Below, piece after piece: positions 11,943 through 25,567 of a DNA stretch of 32,000 nt. Origin of the DNA: Mycolicibacterium smegmatis (GTDB lineage: Bacteria; Actinomycetota; Actinomycetes; Mycobacteriales; Mycobacteriaceae); the NCBI RefSeq assembly GCF_001457595.1, contig NZ_LN831039.1, forward strand, positions 3,330,001 to 3,362,000, read 5' to 3'. The stretch's first letter is position 1. Each line of letters starts with the position of its first letter. A program made the position numbers and the translations under genes. The notes beneath the pieces are model-generated. The model had not been told where the DNA came from, did not search any database, and was given only the letters and a program-made list of their open reading frames with translations.

Positions 11943-11977
11943 GGTTGCGGCGTCCCCGGTGTGGAGACGCCGCAACC
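11943..11977. terminator. Strong GC hairpin (12-bp perfect stem GGTTGCGGCGTC/GACGCCGCAACC) between the convergent nadC and glycine-rich genes
   Basis: Read directly. It fills most of the 45-nt convergent spacer. There is no U-tract, so it would be the mycobacterial I-shaped terminator type if functional. Confidence 0.55.
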
Positions 11978-11984
11978 TCAGCGG

Positions 11985-13526
11985 CTACTCGCTGTCTTTG
12001 GAGTCCGAACCGGTGCCTGCAGCGCCGCCACCGCTCTTGGTGCCGCTGCTCTTGGTGCCGCCGGCCTTCGAGCTGGTCTTCGAGCTGGACTCCGAGCTGG
12101 ACTCCGAGTTGGACTCCGAGCTGGACGATGTGCGACTGCCGGCCTTGTCCGCGCTGCGTGTGGGCGTCGAACGGCCGGTGACACGGTTGCTCACGTTCTC
12201 GCGGGTGGCAGACCGGTCGGTCGCATTGCCGGGGTTGCCGGTCTTGCCGTCGCGGCCAAATCCGCCGCGGCCGGCCTGACCGCCTTGTCCGGGGCGGGCG
12301 CGGTTCGAAGAGCTCTGTGCATCGCCGCCGTCACCGCCATTGCCGCCGCCGGCAAGTCCGCTGCCGCCGTTGCCACCGTTTCCGCCGTACGCTGCGTTGG
12401 TTCCGGTTGCCTTCCCGCCGTTTCCACCGGCACCACCGGTTCCTATTCCGGTCGAGCCACCGTTTCCGCCGTTGCCGGCTGCTGCATTTCCGTTGCGGGT
12501 GCCGGCGGTTCCATTGTTGGCGTCACCGCCGTCGCCGCCGCGGCCGCCGTTTCCGAAAACCCCGCCGGCCCCGCCGTTGCCGCCGTCGGCGCCGTGGCTG
12601 CCCGCCGTTTCAGGACCTTCGCCGTCACCATCACCACCTCGGCCGCCGTCACCCCCCGACCCGACGAGCAGGCCCCCGTTGCCGCCGTTGCCGCCGCGGC
12701 CGGCGTTGGCGATGTGTGCGCCATTGGAGATGACGTTCGGACTTCCGTCGCCCCCTTTGCCGCCGTTGCCGATCAACCCGGCGTTACCTCCGTTTGCACC
12801 TTCCACACCGCCCACCGAGTTGCCGCCGTCACCGCCGTTACCGAGCAAGCCGGCGTTGCCGCCGTCGCCGGCCCGGCCACCGTTGACGCCTGCGAGCCCA
12901 TCTCCGCCCCTGCCGCCGTTGCCGAGCAGAAATCCACCATTGCCGCCCTTCTGACCGGGTCCGCCGTCGGCACCGTTGCCGATCAGCAGGCCGCCGTTCT
13001 GACCGGGCTCGATGCCATTCCCGATGAGCCAGCCACCCGGGCCGATCATCGGGCGGCCACTGGAATCCACGGCCACCGTCACCTTGGCGTCACCCACCAT
13101 GCCCACGGCGATTGGCGTGACGGTGAGCGCGGTGCCAGACGTCGAGGTCTTGGGTGCGAAGACCAGCCGTGCCGTGCTTGAACCGGGTCGGACGGCGCGT
13201 ACGGCGGTGAAGGCAGGAGAGCCGCTGACCCCCGGCTCCAGGTGACCGATGCCCGATCCGGTCGAGGTCACCGACCCGGGCGAGGTCGCGGGCAGGATCG
13301 CACCGTAGAGGGCGTTGGGGGTGGCAGGTGCGCCCTCCGGCGTCGATGTGACCGTCAGCCATCGCGGAGTCGAGGTCGAGGTCGGGGTTTGGTACGTGGT
13401 TGGCGTTCCGGTACTGGCGGGTGCCGGCGCCTGGGAGACAGCGACGCCTGCGGTGGCGACGATGCTCGCCGCGACGGCGGAAGTCAGGCGCTGATGCTTG
13501 GTCACGGCCGACCTATATCGGGGCAT
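11985..13526 (-). CDS. Secreted PGRS-type glycine-rich repeat protein without a PE domain; Ser-rich C-terminal tail
   Basis: 513 aa. The ATG is preceded by GAAGGA at good spacing. The N-terminus has a signal-like segment (LTSAVAASIVATAGVAVSQAPA). About 270 aa are GGxGG repeats with recurring (L/F)(L/I)GNGG motifs, as in PE_PGRS proteins. The tail is SSSSESNSESSSESSSKTSSK. Confidence 0.8.
   Translation of the reverse strand: MPRYRSAVTKHQRLTSAVAASIVATAGVAVSQAPAPASTGTPTTYQTPTSTSTPRWLTVTSTPEGAPATPNALYGAILPATSPGSVTSTGSGIGHLEPGVSGSPAFTAVRAVRPGSSTARLVFAPKTSTSGTALTVTPIAVGMVGDAKVTVAVDSSGRPMIGPGGWLIGNGIEPGQNGGLLIGNGADGGPGQKGGNGGFLLGNGGRGGDGLAGVNGGRAGDGGNAGLLGNGGDGGNSVGGVEGANGGNAGLIGNGGKGGDGSPNVISNGAHIANAGRGGNGGNGGLLVGSGGDGGRGGDGDGEGPETAGSHGADGGNGGAGGVFGNGGRGGDGGDANNGTAGTRNGNAAAGNGGNGGSTGIGTGGAGGNGGKATGTNAAYGGNGGNGGSGLAGGGNGGDGGDAQSSSNRARPGQGGQAGRGGFGRDGKTGNPGNATDRSATRENVSNRVTGRSTPTRSADKAGSRTSSSSESNSESSSESSSKTSSKAGGTKSSGTKSGGGAAGTGSDSKDSE
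12069..12128 (-). repeat. Five tandem 12-bp units (CGAGCTGGACTC-like) encoding the Ser/Glu-rich tail
   Basis: Read directly: units at 12069-12080, 12081-12092, 12093-12104, 12105-12116 and 12117-12128. Unit length is a multiple of 3, so the repeat is in frame. Confidence 0.9.
12237..13049 (-). repeat. PGRS-like GC-rich repetitive coding DNA (reiterated GGCAACGGCGG-type units on the coding strand)
   Basis: On the + strand this appears as reiterated CCGCCGTTGCC(G) and variants. It corresponds to approximately aa 160-430 of the glycine-rich protein. Confidence 0.8.
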
Positions 13527-13892: not shown

Positions 13893-14528
13893 TCAAACAG
13901 TGGCCGCGCGGCGGACCAACGAAAGCACCACGGCGGCTGCCGCGAACAAACCGGAGAACACGCGGTTGAGAATCGTCTGCTGGCGGGGCGTGTGCAGCCA
14001 CGTCAGCAACCGGACCGCGAGGCCGGTGTAGAGCCCCATCACCACCAGGTCGACGGCGATCATCGTCGCGCCGATCGCCAGGTACTGCGGCAGCAGGGGC
14101 GCGGTGGGCACCACGAACTGTGGCAGCACGGCCAGGAAGAACACCAGGCCCTTGGGGTTGGTGGCATTCACCAGGAACCCGCGGACCACCAGGCCGGTAC
14201 GGCCGGCCTCGGTCGCCTTGCCGAGCTGCGCACGCAGGTCGATGGCGGCCGTGCGCCATTGGCGCACCGCCAGGTAGATCAGATAGGCGACGCCGATCCA
14301 CTTGATGATGTTGAACGCGACGATCGAACCGGCCACCGCGGCGCCCAGCCCGATCGCGACCAGGGCGAGCTGCAGCATGAGCCCGATCTCAAGGCCCAGG
14401 ATGCTCCAGTACCCACGGCGCACACCGTGGGTCAGACCGGTCGCCATGGACTGGATGGCACCGGCGCCGGGGGAGACGCTGATCGCGATCGCCGCGCCGA
14501 AGAACGCCAGCCAGACGTGCCATTCCAT
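13893..14528 (-). CDS. LysE/RhtB-family amino-acid exporter
   Basis: 211 aa with about six hydrophobic helices. The N-terminus MEWHVWLAFFGAAIAISVSPGAGAI and the motif NATNPKGLVFFLAVLPQF are typical of the LysE/RhtB family. Confidence 0.88.
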   Translation of the reverse strand: MEWHVWLAFFGAAIAISVSPGAGAIQSMATGLTHGVRRGYWSILGLEIGLMLQLALVAIGLGAAVAGSIVAFNIIKWIGVAYLIYLAVRQWRTAAIDLRAQLGKATEAGRTGLVVRGFLVNATNPKGLVFFLAVLPQFVVPTAPLLPQYLAIGATMIAVDLVVMGLYTGLAVRLLTWLHTPRQQTILNRVFSGLFAAAAVVLSLVRRAATV

Positions 14529-20371: not shown

Positions 20372-21153
20372 GTGCCAACAGCGATGTCGCGACGAGGGTG
20401 ATCCCGTGTCTCGACGTGGACAACGGACGCGTGGTCAAGGGGGTCAACTTCGAGAACCTGCGCGACGCAGGTGATCCCGTGGAACTCGCGGCGGCCTACG
20501 ACGCCGAGGGCGCCGACGAGCTGACGTTCCTCGACGTCACGGCGTCGTCGTCGGGACGCTCCACCATGCTCGAGGTGGTGCGGCGCACCGCCGAGCAGGT
20601 GTTCATCCCGCTGACCGTCGGCGGTGGCGTGCGCTCGGTCGACGATGTCGACGTGCTGCTGCGCGCCGGTGCCGACAAGGTGTCGGTGAACACCGCGGCC
20701 ATCGCGCGCCCCGAACTGCTCGCCGAGATGGCCCGCCAGTTCGGTTCGCAGTGCATCGTGCTGAGCGTGGACGCCAGGACCGTGCCCAAGGGCGAGCAGC
20801 CCACACCGTCGGGCTGGGAGGTCACCACCCACGGCGGCCGCCGTGGCACCGGCATCGATGCGATCGAATGGGCCACGCGCGGTGCCGAACTCGGCGTCGG
20901 CGAGATCCTGCTGAACTCGATGGACCGTGACGGCACCAAGGCCGGTTTCGACCTGAAGATGCTCAGCGCGGTCCGGGCCGCGGTGTCGGTCCCGGTGATC
21001 GCCAGCGGCGGCGCGGGCGCAGTCGAGCATTTCGCGCCCGCCGTGCAGGCCGGGGCCGACGCCGTGCTGGCCGCCAGCGTCTTCCACTTCCGCGAACTGA
21101 CCGTCGCCGAGGTGAAGGCGTCCATGAAGGCCGCGGGGATCACGGTCAGGTGA
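20368..21153 (+). CDS. hisF: Imidazole glycerol phosphate synthase, cyclase subunit (HisF)
   Basis: GTGA overlap with impA. Contains [19 protein letters not shown] and VIASGGAG. Confidence 0.96.
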
Positions 21154-21163
21154 GGGAGCGCAC

Positions 21164-21511
21164 ATGAGTCTGGACCCCGCCATCGCGGCACGTCTCAAAC
21201 GCAACGCCGACGGCCTGTTCGCCGCCGTCACGCAGGAACGCGGCACCGGCAAGGTGCTCATGGTCGCCTGGATGGACGACGACGCCCTGGCCCGCACGCT
21301 GCAGACGCGTGAGGCGACGTACTTCTCGCGTTCACGCGGTGAGCAGTGGGTCAAGGGCGCCACGTCGGGGCACACCCAGAAGGTGCACTCGGTGCGGTTG
21401 GACTGCGACGGCGACACCGTGCTGCTGGAGGTCGACCAGGTGGGCGGCGCGTGCCACACGGGCGACCACACGTGCTTCGACGCCGATCTGCTGTTGGGCC
21501 CTGACGAGTAG
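21164..21511 (+). CDS. hisI: Phosphoribosyl-AMP cyclohydrolase (HisI)
   Basis: 115 aa containing [10 protein letters not shown]...[22 protein letters not shown]...CHTGDHTCF. Confidence 0.95.
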
Positions 21512-21572
21512 CCGGGTGCGCCGCGGCGTTGCGGTGCGCGGGCTTGTCGGTGGTGTCGTCAACAATGACGGG

Positions 21573-23198
21573 GTGACCGAGACCGCCCAGGATCGCAAGG
21601 CGCGGGGTGCCTTCTTCACCCCCGACGCGATCACCACGTACCTCACGCAGTGGGCGGTGCGTTCGGACGCGGACCGCGTCTTCGAGCCGTCCGCGGGTGA
21701 CGCGGCGTTCCTCGTCGCCGCGATCCGCAGGCTGCAGGCCCTCGGGGTGGACCATCCCACCGTCGACGGCGTCGAGATCCACGCCGCGAGCGCGGCTTCG
21801 GCGCGCAGGCGGGTCGCCGACGCCGGGGGACGCGCGCGCATCCGCACGGCCAACTTCTTCGCGGTCGATCCGCGTCCGGAGTACACCGCGGTCATCGGCA
21901 ATCCGCCCTACATCCGCTATCAGGATTTCCGCGGTCAGACACGCGCCGAGTCGCGGCGTGCGGCGCTTCGCGCGGGCGTGACGCTGTCGGGGCTCGCGTC
22001 GAGTTGGGCGGCGTTCACGGTGCACGCCGCGCTGTTCCTGCGGCCGGGCGGACGCATGGCGCTCGTGCTGCCCGCCGAACTGCTCAGCGTCAACTACGCA
22101 TCCGCGGTCCGCAAGTTCCTGTTCGACCGGTTCGCGAGCGTTGAGTTGGTGATGTTCGACGAGCAGGTGTTCCCCGAGGCCGAGGCGGACGTGGTGCTGC
22201 TGCTCGCCGACGGTTTCGACGGCGGCCCCTCCGGTCACGCGGTGATCCACCGCGCCCGCAACGCCGAGGCACTGACCTCCGAACTGGTGCAACGACGTTG
22301 GCGCCCCCGTGATCCTGCCGAGAAGTGGATCAGCGGGTTGATCGGCAGCGCACCCGTCGAGGTGCTGCACGGCCTGGAGGCGGCCGGTGACTTCACGTGC
22401 CTGGAAACCTGGGCCGACACCACACTCGGCATGGTGACCGGCAACAACGGCTATTTCGCGCTGTCACCGCAGCGCGTGCACGAATTGGGTTTGCGGCAGG
22501 CCGATCTGCTGCCGTTGTCCCCTCCGGGAAGCGCACATCTGCGCGGGCTGACGCTCTCGGCCGATCAGCTGACGCGGCTGGGGGAGGACGGCAGGTCCGT
22601 GCACCTGTTCCGGCCCACCGGCGCGAAGCTCTCGGCGGCCGCGGCACGGTACGTCGAGGCGGGGCACGCCGCGGGCGTGCACCTGGCGTACAAGTGCCGG
22701 GTCCGCACACCGTGGTACCTGGTGCCCCTCGTCGAGCCCGCGGACCTGTTGTTGACGTGTATGAACGCCGATACGCCGCGGCTGGTCACCAACCGTGCCA
22801 GGGCGCACCACCTCAACTCGGTGCACGGGGTGTACCTGCGTGACGGGTTCACCACGCTGGGCCGCGACCTGCTGCCGCTGGCGTCGCTGAACTCGGTGAC
22901 CCTGCTGCACGCCGAGATGGTCGGCCGGTCCTACGGCGGCGGCATCCTCAAGATCGAACCCCGTGAGGCCGACCAGTGGTTGGTGCCGTCACCACAGCTC
23001 ATCGAGACGCATGCGGCCCCGCTGCGGGCCGTACGGCGTCGCGTGGCGGGCCTGCTGGACCGTGGCCGGCTGCTCGACGCCGTGGCCACCGTCGACCAGG
23101 CGCTCGGAGTCGAATCGGGCGCGGCCCTGGAATCCGTTCGCAATGCGCACCATTCGTTGGCGACGCGGCGAACGGTAAGGTCGCGGCGTGCCCGCTGA
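21573..23198 (+). CDS. Gamma-class N6-adenine DNA methyltransferase (Eco57I/TaqI-like, with a C-terminal target-recognition domain)
   Basis: Motif X GAFFTP, motif I VFEPSAGDAAF, motif IV GNPPYIRY, and the TRD-type motif LGMVTGNNGYFAL. The start is uncertain: GTG codons occur in frame at 21516, 21528, 21534, 21546, 21555, 21558 and 21573. I took the one just before the conserved core. Confidence 0.88.
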   Translation: MTETAQDRKARGAFFTPDAITTYLTQWAVRSDADRVFEPSAGDAAFLVAAIRRLQALGVDHPTVDGVEIHAASAASARRRVADAGGRARIRTANFFAVDPRPEYTAVIGNPPYIRYQDFRGQTRAESRRAALRAGVTLSGLASSWAAFTVHAALFLRPGGRMALVLPAELLSVNYASAVRKFLFDRFASVELVMFDEQVFPEAEADVVLLLADGFDGGPSGHAVIHRARNAEALTSELVQRRWRPRDPAEKWISGLIGSAPVEVLHGLEAAGDFTCLETWADTTLGMVTGNNGYFALSPQRVHELGLRQADLLPLSPPGSAHLRGLTLSADQLTRLGEDGRSVHLFRPTGAKLSAAAARYVEAGHAAGVHLAYKCRVRTPWYLVPLVEPADLLLTCMNADTPRLVTNRARAHHLNSVHGVYLRDGFTTLGRDLLPLASLNSVTLLHAEMVGRSYGGGILKIEPREADQWLVPSPQLIETHAAPLRAVRRRVAGLLDRGRLLDAVATVDQALGVESGAALESVRNAHHSLATRRTVRSRRAR

Positions 23199-24180
23199 AC
23201 CCTCCACCAAGGCCACCGCCTGGGCAATCTTCGACCGCATCGTGGCCGACGCCGCACCCGGCGGGGTGCACACCAACCCGTGGCTGCGCAACGGCAACGC
23301 GCTGACGTACGTGCCCGATTTCCGGGTGCTGCGCAAGCTTCTCGCCGTGCCGTTGTATCTCGACGCCCCGTCGACCACGGGCGTCCCGGCGCTCGCGCTC
23401 GACGTGTGGCTGTCCTACGAGTTGCGGCGCGCGGGTTTCGACAGCGACGCGGTGTGGCCGCGCGCAAGCGACCCGCGGATCATGCCGGGCGCGATCTCCA
23501 GCCTGCTCGAGGCGCTCCCGCAGAAGGAGCGCCTGCTCATCGAGCAGCGGCTGCGGCGGTCGATGAAGGGCGTGTCGGGTTCCAGCGCAAGCGTGCTCGG
23601 CAAGCACTACATGAAGCAGGTCGACGTCGTGATGTCGGACTGGGACACCGGCCCGGAGCTGCTCATCAGCACCAAGCGCATGGATTCGAGCTTCGGCAAG
23701 AACGCCGCCAACCGCGTCGAGGAGAGCTACGGCGACGCCAAGAACCTCCGGTTGCGTCACCCTCTCGCGGCGCTGGGCTTCGTGTATGGCCTGCGCTCGA
23801 CGATCCTGTCCACCGAACCGGACAAGGCCGAATGGCTGATCGACCTGCTGGGCAAGCTCGGCACCGAGGACGACGCCTATCATGCCGTCGCACTCGTGAT
23901 GATCGACCACGACGCCGAGGTCAGCGAGCCCGACGACGAGGTGGACAGCCTCGAAAAGGCCGAGCCTGACACGCTTTTCGAGATCGTCGACGTCGAGACC
24001 GCGAAGGTCGACGAGGCGCTCGCGGCGCTGCCCGACATCGCGATCCGCCACGACGCGGTGCCGGAACAACTGCAGCCGGCCAGGTTCCTGCAGACCATGG
24101 TGGCGCGGGTCCTGGACGTCTCGCCCGTGACGCGGCACCGCGAGGCGCGCTTTCGCCGCAACACGGCCCCGCAGATGTGA
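23188..24180 (+). CDS. Unassigned 330-aa protein translationally coupled to the methyltransferase; possible restriction endonuclease or defence effector
   Basis: The GTG start overlaps the MTase stop by 11 nt. Codon usage matches the genome. I recognise no family motif. A weak nuclease-like pattern (VDVVMSD...ELLISTK...EES) and an acidic segment (DHDAEVSEPDDEVDSLEKAEPD) are present. The confidence given is for the CDS call, not the function. Confidence 0.7.
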   Translation: MPAEPSTKATAWAIFDRIVADAAPGGVHTNPWLRNGNALTYVPDFRVLRKLLAVPLYLDAPSTTGVPALALDVWLSYELRRAGFDSDAVWPRASDPRIMPGAISSLLEALPQKERLLIEQRLRRSMKGVSGSSASVLGKHYMKQVDVVMSDWDTGPELLISTKRMDSSFGKNAANRVEESYGDAKNLRLRHPLAALGFVYGLRSTILSTEPDKAEWLIDLLGKLGTEDDAYHAVALVMIDHDAEVSEPDDEVDSLEKAEPDTLFEIVDVETAKVDEALAALPDIAIRHDAVPEQLQPARFLQTMVARVLDVSPVTRHREARFRRNTAPQM

Positions 24181-24187
24181 GCTTGTC

Positions 24188-24985
24188 TCAGAGCACGCGG
24201 GCGCCGGGTTTGGCGCGCGCGGTCCAGCGGCCCTCGTCGTAGGTCACCGTCACCGGATGAGCGAACGCCGTCGTGACGTGGTCGGTGGTGACGGTCTCGA
24301 CCGCACGTCCGGAGGCCACGGTGCGCCCCTCGGCGATCAGGATCGCGTGTGTGGTGCTCGTGGGCAGTTCCTCGAGGTGGTGCGTCACCAGGATCGACGC
24401 CATGTCCGGATGCGTATCATCCAGTGCGTCAAGGGTTTCCAGCAACTGTTCGCGTGCGGCGACGTCGAGGCCCGTGGTGGGTTCGTCGAGCAGCAGCAGC
24501 CGGGGATCCGAGATCAACGCCCGCGCGATCAGCGTGCGACCACGCTCGCCCTGCGACAGGGTCGGCCATTCGGCGTCGACGCGCGCCGACAGGCCCACGG
24601 TGTCGACGAGTTCCTCGGCGCGCGCGATCTGTTCGGGGCTGGGGGTCCAGCGTGCCGCGGTGTCCACCGTGGCGGTGATCCCGGTCAGCACCACCTCGCG
24701 CACCGTCAGCGGGTACTGCAACCGGTGGCGCGGGTTGACGTGGCCGATCGAGCGCCGCAGCACCGACAGGTCCGTGCGGCCCATCTGGGCGCCGAGCACC
24801 CACACCGACCCGGTCGTCGGAAACGTCACCGCCGCACAGAAACCCAACAGCGTGCTCTTGCCTGCCCCGTTCGGGCCCAGCAGCGCCCAGTGCTCGCCGC
24901 TGCGCACGGTCAGCGATATGCCGTCGATGATCTGCTTGCCGTTGCGGCGGAAGGTCACATCGTCGATCTTCAGGACTTCGGTCAC
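24188..24985 (-). CDS. Stand-alone ABC-transporter ATP-binding protein (single NBD, ModF/YlmA-like)
   Basis: GTG start. Walker A GPNGAGKST, signature LSQGERGR, Walker B LLLLDEPTTGLD, H-loop VTHH. No permease gene is adjacent. Confidence 0.9.
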   Translation of the reverse strand: MTEVLKIDDVTFRRNGKQIIDGISLTVRSGEHWALLGPNGAGKSTLLGFCAAVTFPTTGSVWVLGAQMGRTDLSVLRRSIGHVNPRHRLQYPLTVREVVLTGITATVDTAARWTPSPEQIARAEELVDTVGLSARVDAEWPTLSQGERGRTLIARALISDPRLLLLDEPTTGLDVAAREQLLETLDALDDTHPDMASILVTHHLEELPTSTTHAILIAEGRTVASGRAVETVTTDHVTTAFAHPVTVTYDEGRWTARAKPGARVL

Positions 24986-25102
24986 GTAAAGGACTCCATG
25001 TCAGGGCAGATGCTGCACTCATGTCAGGGCCGGGGCGCACCTCGTCGTGCGCGGGACGTCGCCCCGCGTAAGGCTACGCGCCCTTCCTGAAAGGTCCGGC
25101 GG

Positions 25103-25567
25103 TCAACGAGACCTGAGGACCTCGAGTGCCTTGTCGGCGTGGGTGTCCATGTTGATCTCGCTGGAGATCACGGCCAGCACCGTGCTGTCGGTGTCGATGA
25201 CGAAGGTGGTCCGCTTGACCGGCATGAGTTTGCCCAGCAATCCCCGCTTGACGCCGAACCGCGCGGCCACCGTGCCGTCGGCGTCGGAGAGCAGCGGGAA
25301 GGCGAACCGGTGGGTCTCGGCGAACCTGGCCTGTTTGGCAGGCGGATCGGTGCTGATCCCGACGGGATTCGCACCCACCGCGGCGAATTCTTGCGCCAGA
25401 TCACGGAAATGGCAGGCCTCTTTGGTGCACCCTGGGGTCATGGCCGCGGGGTAGAAGAACAGCACAACGGGACCGTCGCCGAGCAAACGCGTCAAGCTGC
25501 GTTTCTGTCCGGTCTGATCCGGCAGTTCGAACTCGGCGACGGTGTCACCCGTCCCTATAGAAGTCAT
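25103..25567 (-). CDS. bcpB: Peroxiredoxin, Bcp type (BcpB-like)
   Basis: The internal ATG at 25567 gives MTSIGTGDTVAEFELPDQTG. Peroxidatic Cys context FYPAAMTPGCTKEAC. The upstream part of the ORF is Arg/Trp-rich and would overlap the trpE promoter. Confidence 0.88.
   Translation of the reverse strand: MTSIGTGDTVAEFELPDQTGQKRSLTRLLGDGPVVLFFYPAAMTPGCTKEACHFRDLAQEFAAVGANPVGISTDPPAKQARFAETHRFAFPLLSDADGTVAARFGVKRGLLGKLMPVKRTTFVIDTDSTVLAVISSEINMDTHADKALEVLRSR

Follow-up and report, generated by a model that had tools for sequence, protein, structure and literature searches.

The sequence analysed was a 32,000-nucleotide (nt) stretch of the Mycolicibacterium smegmatis chromosome (NZ_LN831039.1, positions 3,330,001 to 3,362,000). 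This whole stretch is referred to as the window and all coordinates are given within it. The window contains two adjacent plus-strand genes which were identified as MSMEG_3213, encoding a DNA methyltransferase, and MSMEG_3214, encoding a putative restriction endonuclease. MSMEG_3213 (21516..23198, 560 amino acids) follows hisI, which encodes a Pfam PRA-CH domain protein on the same strand and ends in a TAG stop at 21509-21511. The spacer is 4 to 61 nt depending on which GTG start is taken. The methyltransferase TGA stop (23196-23198) lies within an 11-nt overlap (23188..23198) between the end of MSMEG_3213 and the GTG start of MSMEG_3214, a 993-nt coding sequence (23188..24180) for 330 amino acids. 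A Shine-Dalgarno-like GGTAAGG (23174..23180, plus strand) was read from the sequence within the 3' end of the methyltransferase gene, 7 nt upstream of the endonuclease GTG. It may couple translation of the two genes. The endonuclease TGA (24178-24180) is 7 nt from the stop (24188-24190) of a convergent minus-strand gene for an ABC ATPase (Pfam ABC_tran). An earlier first-pass annotation of this DNA had described methyltransferase motifs after hisI, an 11-nt overlap, a 330-residue open reading frame (ORF) and a 7-nt convergent gap, and the coordinates bear out this layout.

The first-pass annotation had also reported no convincing terminator between hisI and the methyltransferase gene, no flanking repeat and no compositional shift. 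All three hold. A consensus promoter and terminator scan of 21100-24400 found no terminator-like or sigma-70-like sites, and a repeat search found only chance matches of 12-31 nt around the cassette, so no recent insertion is evident. The GC content of the cassette (0.68-0.71) is level with that of its flanks (0.67-0.71). Read-through from the housekeeping operon had been proposed as a possibility. It may occur but is not needed, as the work of Randall et al. (2020, PMC7526240) relied on a native promoter whose 5' untranslated region (UTR), 42 nt long, was already known. Counted back from the GTG at 21516, this places the putative transcription start of the methyltransferase-endonuclease operon at 21474 on the plus strand, within the 3' end of hisI. 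With its own promoter inside hisI the operon need not depend on read-through from the his genes, which may act alongside it.

Three in-frame GTG starts, at 21516, 21534 and 21573, give methyltransferase products of 560, 554 and 541 amino acids, and all three are used in public annotations. The 560-residue product from 21516 is an exact match to ABK71058.1 of strain mc2155, with the 554- and 541-residue versions in the same cluster. In homologues from other genera the alignment begins only at about residue 22, and this speaks for a conserved protein start near 21573, while the published 42-nt UTR assumes 21516. Three Pfam domains scored above their cut-offs: N6_Mtase (46 bits), Eco57I (42 bits) and M_Eco57I_C (55 bits). 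The PADLOC MTase_II model PDLC03301 gave 1244 bits. The motif GAFFTP (21606..21623) falls within the N6_Mtase match (residues 24-229) and is followed by motif I for binding of S-adenosylmethionine (AdoMet), FEPSAGDAAF (21681..21710). This order is typical of the gamma class of N6-adenine methyltransferases. The NPPY catalytic loop of motif IV is present as GNPPYIRY (21897..21920). The protein thus has an AdoMet-dependent N6-adenine catalytic domain with both motif I and NPPY. Among enzymes of solved structure, M.BseCI and M.TaqI come nearest to it in sequence (E = 3e-7 to 1e-4 across about 200 residues). Membership of two other defence families was rejected, as the protein scored 37 bits against an NCBIfam cut-off of 720 for MADS MAD2 and 10.8 bits against a cut-off of 900 for BREX-6 PglX.

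The pair is the same locus as MSMEG_3213/MSMEG_3214 of M. smegmatis mc2155 and no difference was found. The methyltransferase is ABK71058.1, the partner matches the M. smegmatis hypothetical protein WP_003894603.1 with 100% identity, and the published guide RNA and protospacer adjacent motif (PAM) coordinates fit. Synonymous PAM-destroying mutations were reported at coding nt 96 (C to G) and 99 (C to T) of MSMEG_3213 (PMC7526240). These fall on the GCC and TTC codons of the G-A-F-F motif (21609-21614), and coding nt 1 is therefore position 21516. The stretch of MSMEG_3214 deleted by Randall et al. was nt 29-993 (PMC7526240), and these endpoints agree with the 993-nt ORF of the window.

Two independent studies have described what the pair does in the cell. 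Depletion of MSMEG_3213 by CRISPR interference (CRISPRi) stopped growth, reduced colony-forming units about 100-fold and produced filaments and DNA-free cells (PMC7526240). In the second study (de Wet et al. 2020, PMC7647400) cells knocked down for the methylase formed filaments, positioned oriC abnormally and showed an SOS-like transcriptome. Deletion of MSMEG_3214 abolished the depletion phenotype (PMC7526240) and dual CRISPRi of both genes rescued the cells (PMC7647400). The two genes are co-transcribed, and CTCGAG is the REBASE prediction for both products (PMC7526240), which were cited in 2020 under the REBASE names M.Msms1ORF2534P and Msms1ORF2534P (PMC7526240, PMC7647400). Single-molecule real-time (SMRT) sequencing of the wild type later found N6-methyladenine (m6A) at CTCGAG at 87% of sites, and DefenseFinder calls the pair in the same work (2026 preprint, 10.64898/2026.03.26.714485). 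A 2024 paper cites MSMEG_3213/MSMEG_3214 as a retained cognate system. The expectation of a restriction-modification or defence system at this locus was therefore right as to the system and wrong in calling it uncharacterised, as it was published in 2020 (PMC7526240, PMC7647400) and is in REBASE.

Linkage of the two genes was assessed by a genome scan. A methyltransferase homologue lay directly upstream at all 80 genomic loci encoding a partner homologue (partner identity 58-89%), ending about 0-125 nt before it. This neighbourhood survey had been suggested as a check on the pairing, which it supports. Full-length relatives with 60-82% identity accounted for 78 of the 80 upstream methyltransferases. 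The genes are adjacent and co-oriented, and their linkage is conserved across genomes. Two loci departed from the common form. On the Leifsonia sp. P73 plasmid pLP73.2 (4543-5523) the endonuclease homologue is intact and the upstream methyltransferase matches residues 77-404 only, and may be disrupted. In a Caulobacterales metagenome-assembled genome (MAG; 1361-2752) an endonuclease with 58% identity stands beside a methyltransferase with only 34% identity, a combination which, judged from these identities, suggests partner swapping.

In about 48 Mycolicibacterium/Mycobacterium loci the pair is found where it stands in M. smegmatis, between hisI and bcp/trpE, and the ABC ATPase gene usually accompanies it. 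Identities there were 77-89% for the endonuclease and 72-82% for the methyltransferase, somewhat lower than for hisF and trpE (85-94%). These values fit long residence at the his-trp site, and the earlier description of the cassette as old or domesticated is reasonable given this shared position. A more divergent pair (65-69% identity) holds the same position in Mycobacterium sp. MAGs and in Mycolicibacterium palauense (three loci), with hisF and trpE flanks 85-91% identical to those of M. smegmatis. This could be allelic replacement or old divergence at a fixed site. The interval also varies in other ways, as seen from loci L011, L018, L021, L024, L027, L032-L035 and L046 set against 21511-21516 and 24985-25103 of the window. 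Several species carry 0.6-3 kb of extra DNA between hisI and the methyltransferase gene, and at one locus (L016) the endonuclease and ABC genes are about 1.7 kb apart. In most Mycolicibacterium the ABC ATPase gene and bcp are separated by about 2.5 kb that is absent from M. smegmatis. The hisI-trpE interval looks like an insertion hot spot among Mycolicibacterium. Outside this group the flanks are unrelated, in Curtobacterium, Corynebacterium, Microbacterium, Arthrobacter, a Leifsonia plasmid, Methylibium, Paraburkholderia and others. The partner homologue was found in 24 plasmid records and, in the annotated records among those listed, it commonly lies beside an N-6 methylase gene. The presence of the pair on plasmids and in unrelated genera indicates horizontal spread.

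The MSMEG_3214 family is sizeable, with 389 clusters at 50% identity reaching E <= 0.001, and its N-terminus is conserved among homologues from residue 1. Conservation was examined in 39 relatives that share 32-67% identity with the window protein and, separately, in an 85-sequence alignment, with agreement between the two. The most conserved core, KQVDVV...ELLISTK...NRVEES...RHP, is encoded at 23614..23763. Invariant residues include K143, D146, S161, N172, N175, R176 and E178, and near-invariant ones are E157, K163 and E179. From this core D146 (23623-23625), E157, S161, K163 (23674-23676) and E178 (23719-23721) are candidates for catalysis. In 14 of the 39 relatives the Pfam XhoI profile (PF04555) matched co-linearly over profile positions of about 46-131 with scores of 11-20.7 bits, the best of which falls short of the gathering threshold of 25 bits. 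PADLOC REase_II models also matched among these relatives, PDLC03558 in 22 (best E = 2.7e-5), PDLC03540 in 15 and PDLC03400 in seven. These sub-threshold XhoI and REase_II matches coincide with the conserved core. The only recurring non-nuclease model was Bclx_interact (39 residues), with short matches at the conserved ELRRAGF helix in seven members. A first AlphaFold2 (AF2) model of the partner, based on 29 close homologues, gave a poor conserved core, with a predicted local distance difference test score (pLDDT) of 62. A second model from the 85-sequence alignment reached a pLDDT of 87. There the core is modelled as a beta hairpin (147-151, 155-165) leading into a helix (173-190). The active site is probably of the metal-dependent PD-(D/E)XK type, formed by D146, S161-x-K163 and E178, or E157. 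Both the nuclease fold and the catalytic residues are predictions.

The window contains 10 CTCGAG sites, one of them inside the endonuclease gene (23506..23511), and 13 other CTYRAG sites. Against the 13-28 CTCGAG sites expected under different Markov orders the observed count is uninformative. CTCGAG was depleted 5- to 20-fold over three mycobacteriophages: D29 has 4 sites (about 33 expected), TM4 has 4 (20-53 expected) and Bxb1 has 2 (28-42 expected), where no other of the 64 six-base palindromes is as strongly depleted. The related sequences CTCAAG and CTTGAG occur in 7-32 copies each in the three phages, as raw counts without expectations. The CTCGAG depletion fits selection by CTCGAG restriction in mycobacterial hosts, as indirect evidence. 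Several other GC-rich palindromes were absent altogether, with 10-44 copies expected. CAGCTG, GAGCTC and GGGCCC have zero copies in both D29 and TM4. D29 also lacks TCCGGA and GTGCAC, and TM4 lacks CCCGGG and ACCGGT. This avoidance extends well beyond CTCGAG and suggests other restriction systems within the host range of D29 and TM4. No methyltransferase homologue was found in the mycobacteriophages of the phage collection searched. Self-methylation by a phage-borne member of the MSMEG_3213 family is thus not a visible counter-defence.

The pair is very probably an orthodox type II (IIP-like) restriction-modification operon of M. smegmatis (probability about 0.88). In the proposed mechanism MSMEG_3213 would use AdoMet to form m6A on the host chromosome at the adenine of the palindromic site CTCGAG, and MSMEG_3214, made from the same transcript, would be the cognate endonuclease cutting unmethylated CTCGAG. 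Incoming unmodified DNA would be cut by MSMEG_3214. If the methylase were lost the chromosome would be cut instead, making the pair also addictive. This reading joins the lethality and rescue, the co-transcription and the m6A at CTCGAG reported by others to what was established here, namely that the genes match the published ones, are strictly linked and mobile, and that the partner has a conserved core. The exact cleavage specificity and the defence role are predicted. The endonuclease is taken to be restricted to CTCGAG, because the reported methylome shows only CTCGAG and cutting at CTYRAG would then be lethal. The 13 other CTYRAG sites of the window would accordingly have to stay uncut.

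Several points weigh against this interpretation. The reported CTCGAG methylome is that of the wild type and not of a methyltransferase mutant, and REBASE reportedly lists the endonuclease as CTYRAG, not CTCGAG (10.64898/2026.03.26.714485). Depletion in the phages is as strong or stronger for many other GC-rich palindromes, so that of CTCGAG is not specific evidence. A full-text literature search found no paper with enzymatic or phage-restriction assays of MSMEG_3214, and in-vitro cleavage by this protein is listed among the limitations of PMC7526240. The window partner has no match in Pfam or NCBIfam (none to Pfam XhoI at E <= 1), in keeping with the earlier remark that the 330-residue ORF has no recognisable family, and its match to PADLOC REase_II PDLC03558 was marginal (E = 0.014, residues 159-200). 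Sequence and profile searches against PDB sequences returned only noise for the partner. Foldseek comparison of the confident AF2 model with the PDB gave a best E-value of 0.2 and nothing significant.

This lack of a significant match to any solved nuclease by sequence or fold, together with the lack of a published biochemical assay (limitations, PMC7526240), would suit a protein that is not a site-specific nuclease. MSMEG_3214 could instead be a methylation-sensitive DNA-binding toxin, acting at unmethylated sites by blocking replication or by bringing in other nucleases. Against this, the protein has an invariant acidic/lysine core, D...S-x-K...E, on a hairpin-plus-helix element, and the recurrent co-linear sub-threshold matches of the family reach only restriction-enzyme models (XhoI and the three PADLOC REase_II models). 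The weak top Foldseek matches include the PD-(D/E)XK nucleases Mus81, BstEII and XisH, and in a published HHpred analysis MSMEG_3214 weakly matched a BbvCI subunit (PMC7647400). The published SOS response and anucleate cells are also consistent with DNA breaks (PMC7526240, PMC7647400). The toxin explanation is accordingly considered highly improbable. Almost as unlikely is that the methyltransferase is chiefly an epigenetic regulator, with the downstream gene incidental. MSMEG_3213 has been called a homologue of MamA, which affects gene expression in M. tuberculosis (PMC7526240), and its promoter is embedded in a housekeeping gene. Against this stand the strict linkage to the partner at 80 of 80 loci and the essentiality of MSMEG_3213, which vanishes once MSMEG_3214 is removed (PMC7526240, PMC7647400). 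It follows from this loss of essentiality that the essential job of the methylase is protection from its partner. A secondary regulatory role may still exist.

The pair could persist mainly as a selfish addiction module which gives M. smegmatis little real protection from phages or plasmids, and this is rated as rather unlikely. Methylase depletion kills cells (PMC7526240, PMC7647400), the occurrence of the pair on plasmids and in unrelated genera indicates horizontal spread, and thousands of phages plate on mc2155, with D29, Bxb1 and TM4 each retaining 2-4 CTCGAG sites. On the other hand, the strong depletion of CTCGAG in the same three phages, at the top of the 64 palindromes in Bxb1, argues for genuine selection through CTCGAG-specific restriction in their host range. 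The stable position in about 48 Mycolicibacterium/Mycobacterium loci looks like that of a retained useful trait. Addiction and defence are mutually compatible roles.

As a type II restriction-modification operon the pair can be compared with known systems. It resembles the XhoI and PaeR7I-type systems in its reported site, CTCGAG, and in its arrangement of an m6A methylase with a separate endonuclease. Relatives of the partner match the central part of the XhoI profile (PF04555) co-linearly below threshold, whereas the window partner itself has no match and is 330 amino acids long against a profile of 191 positions. The partner is at best a distinct family distantly related to XhoI. With M.TaqI, M.BseCI and the Eco57I-type enzymes the methyltransferase shares the N6_Mtase, Eco57I and M_Eco57I_C domains, NPPY and the motif order. 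It differs from M.TaqI and M.BseCI in its low similarity and in its target site. MamA of M. tuberculosis (Rv3263) is named in the literature as a homologue and both are m6A methyltransferases (PMC7526240). The published descriptions set MamA apart as a non-essential orphan without a cognate endonuclease and with another specificity (PMC7526240), and judged from the Rv numbering it lies at another locus.

A more far-reaching proposal is that MSMEG_3214 represents a sizeable endonuclease family with a rearranged D...S-x-K...E site remotely related to XhoI, and that the pair has been fixed between hisI and trpE through the Mycolicibacterium radiation. We regard this as doubtful. If true, such a fixed hisI-trpE site would set the pair apart from type II systems, which are normally mobile, and could mean a second, regulatory role gained by the methylase, as for MamA in M. 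tuberculosis.

Some features elsewhere in the window were recorded. AT skew is strongly negative (down to -0.33) and GC skew is negative between 11500 and 13500. Long overlapping ORFs occur on both strands, at 11985-13526 on the minus strand and 11961-13181 on the plus strand. The minus-strand product has a sub-threshold match to a PGRS repeat (22 bits against a cut-off of 27). The GC content dips locally to 0.62 between 13000 and 14500, compared to about 0.70 elsewhere, and this region overlaps a LysE-type translocator gene (13893-14528, minus strand).

Described in 2020 and listed in REBASE, the system has an endonuclease whose family is without a curated model or a solved structure. The window leaves existing knowledge of the pair unchanged. 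M. smegmatis mc2155 is the standard host for mycobacteriophage isolation and for mycobacterial genetics. Active CTCGAG restriction in this strain could bias the phages and plasmids that are recovered from it, a point which has already been made (PMC7647400).

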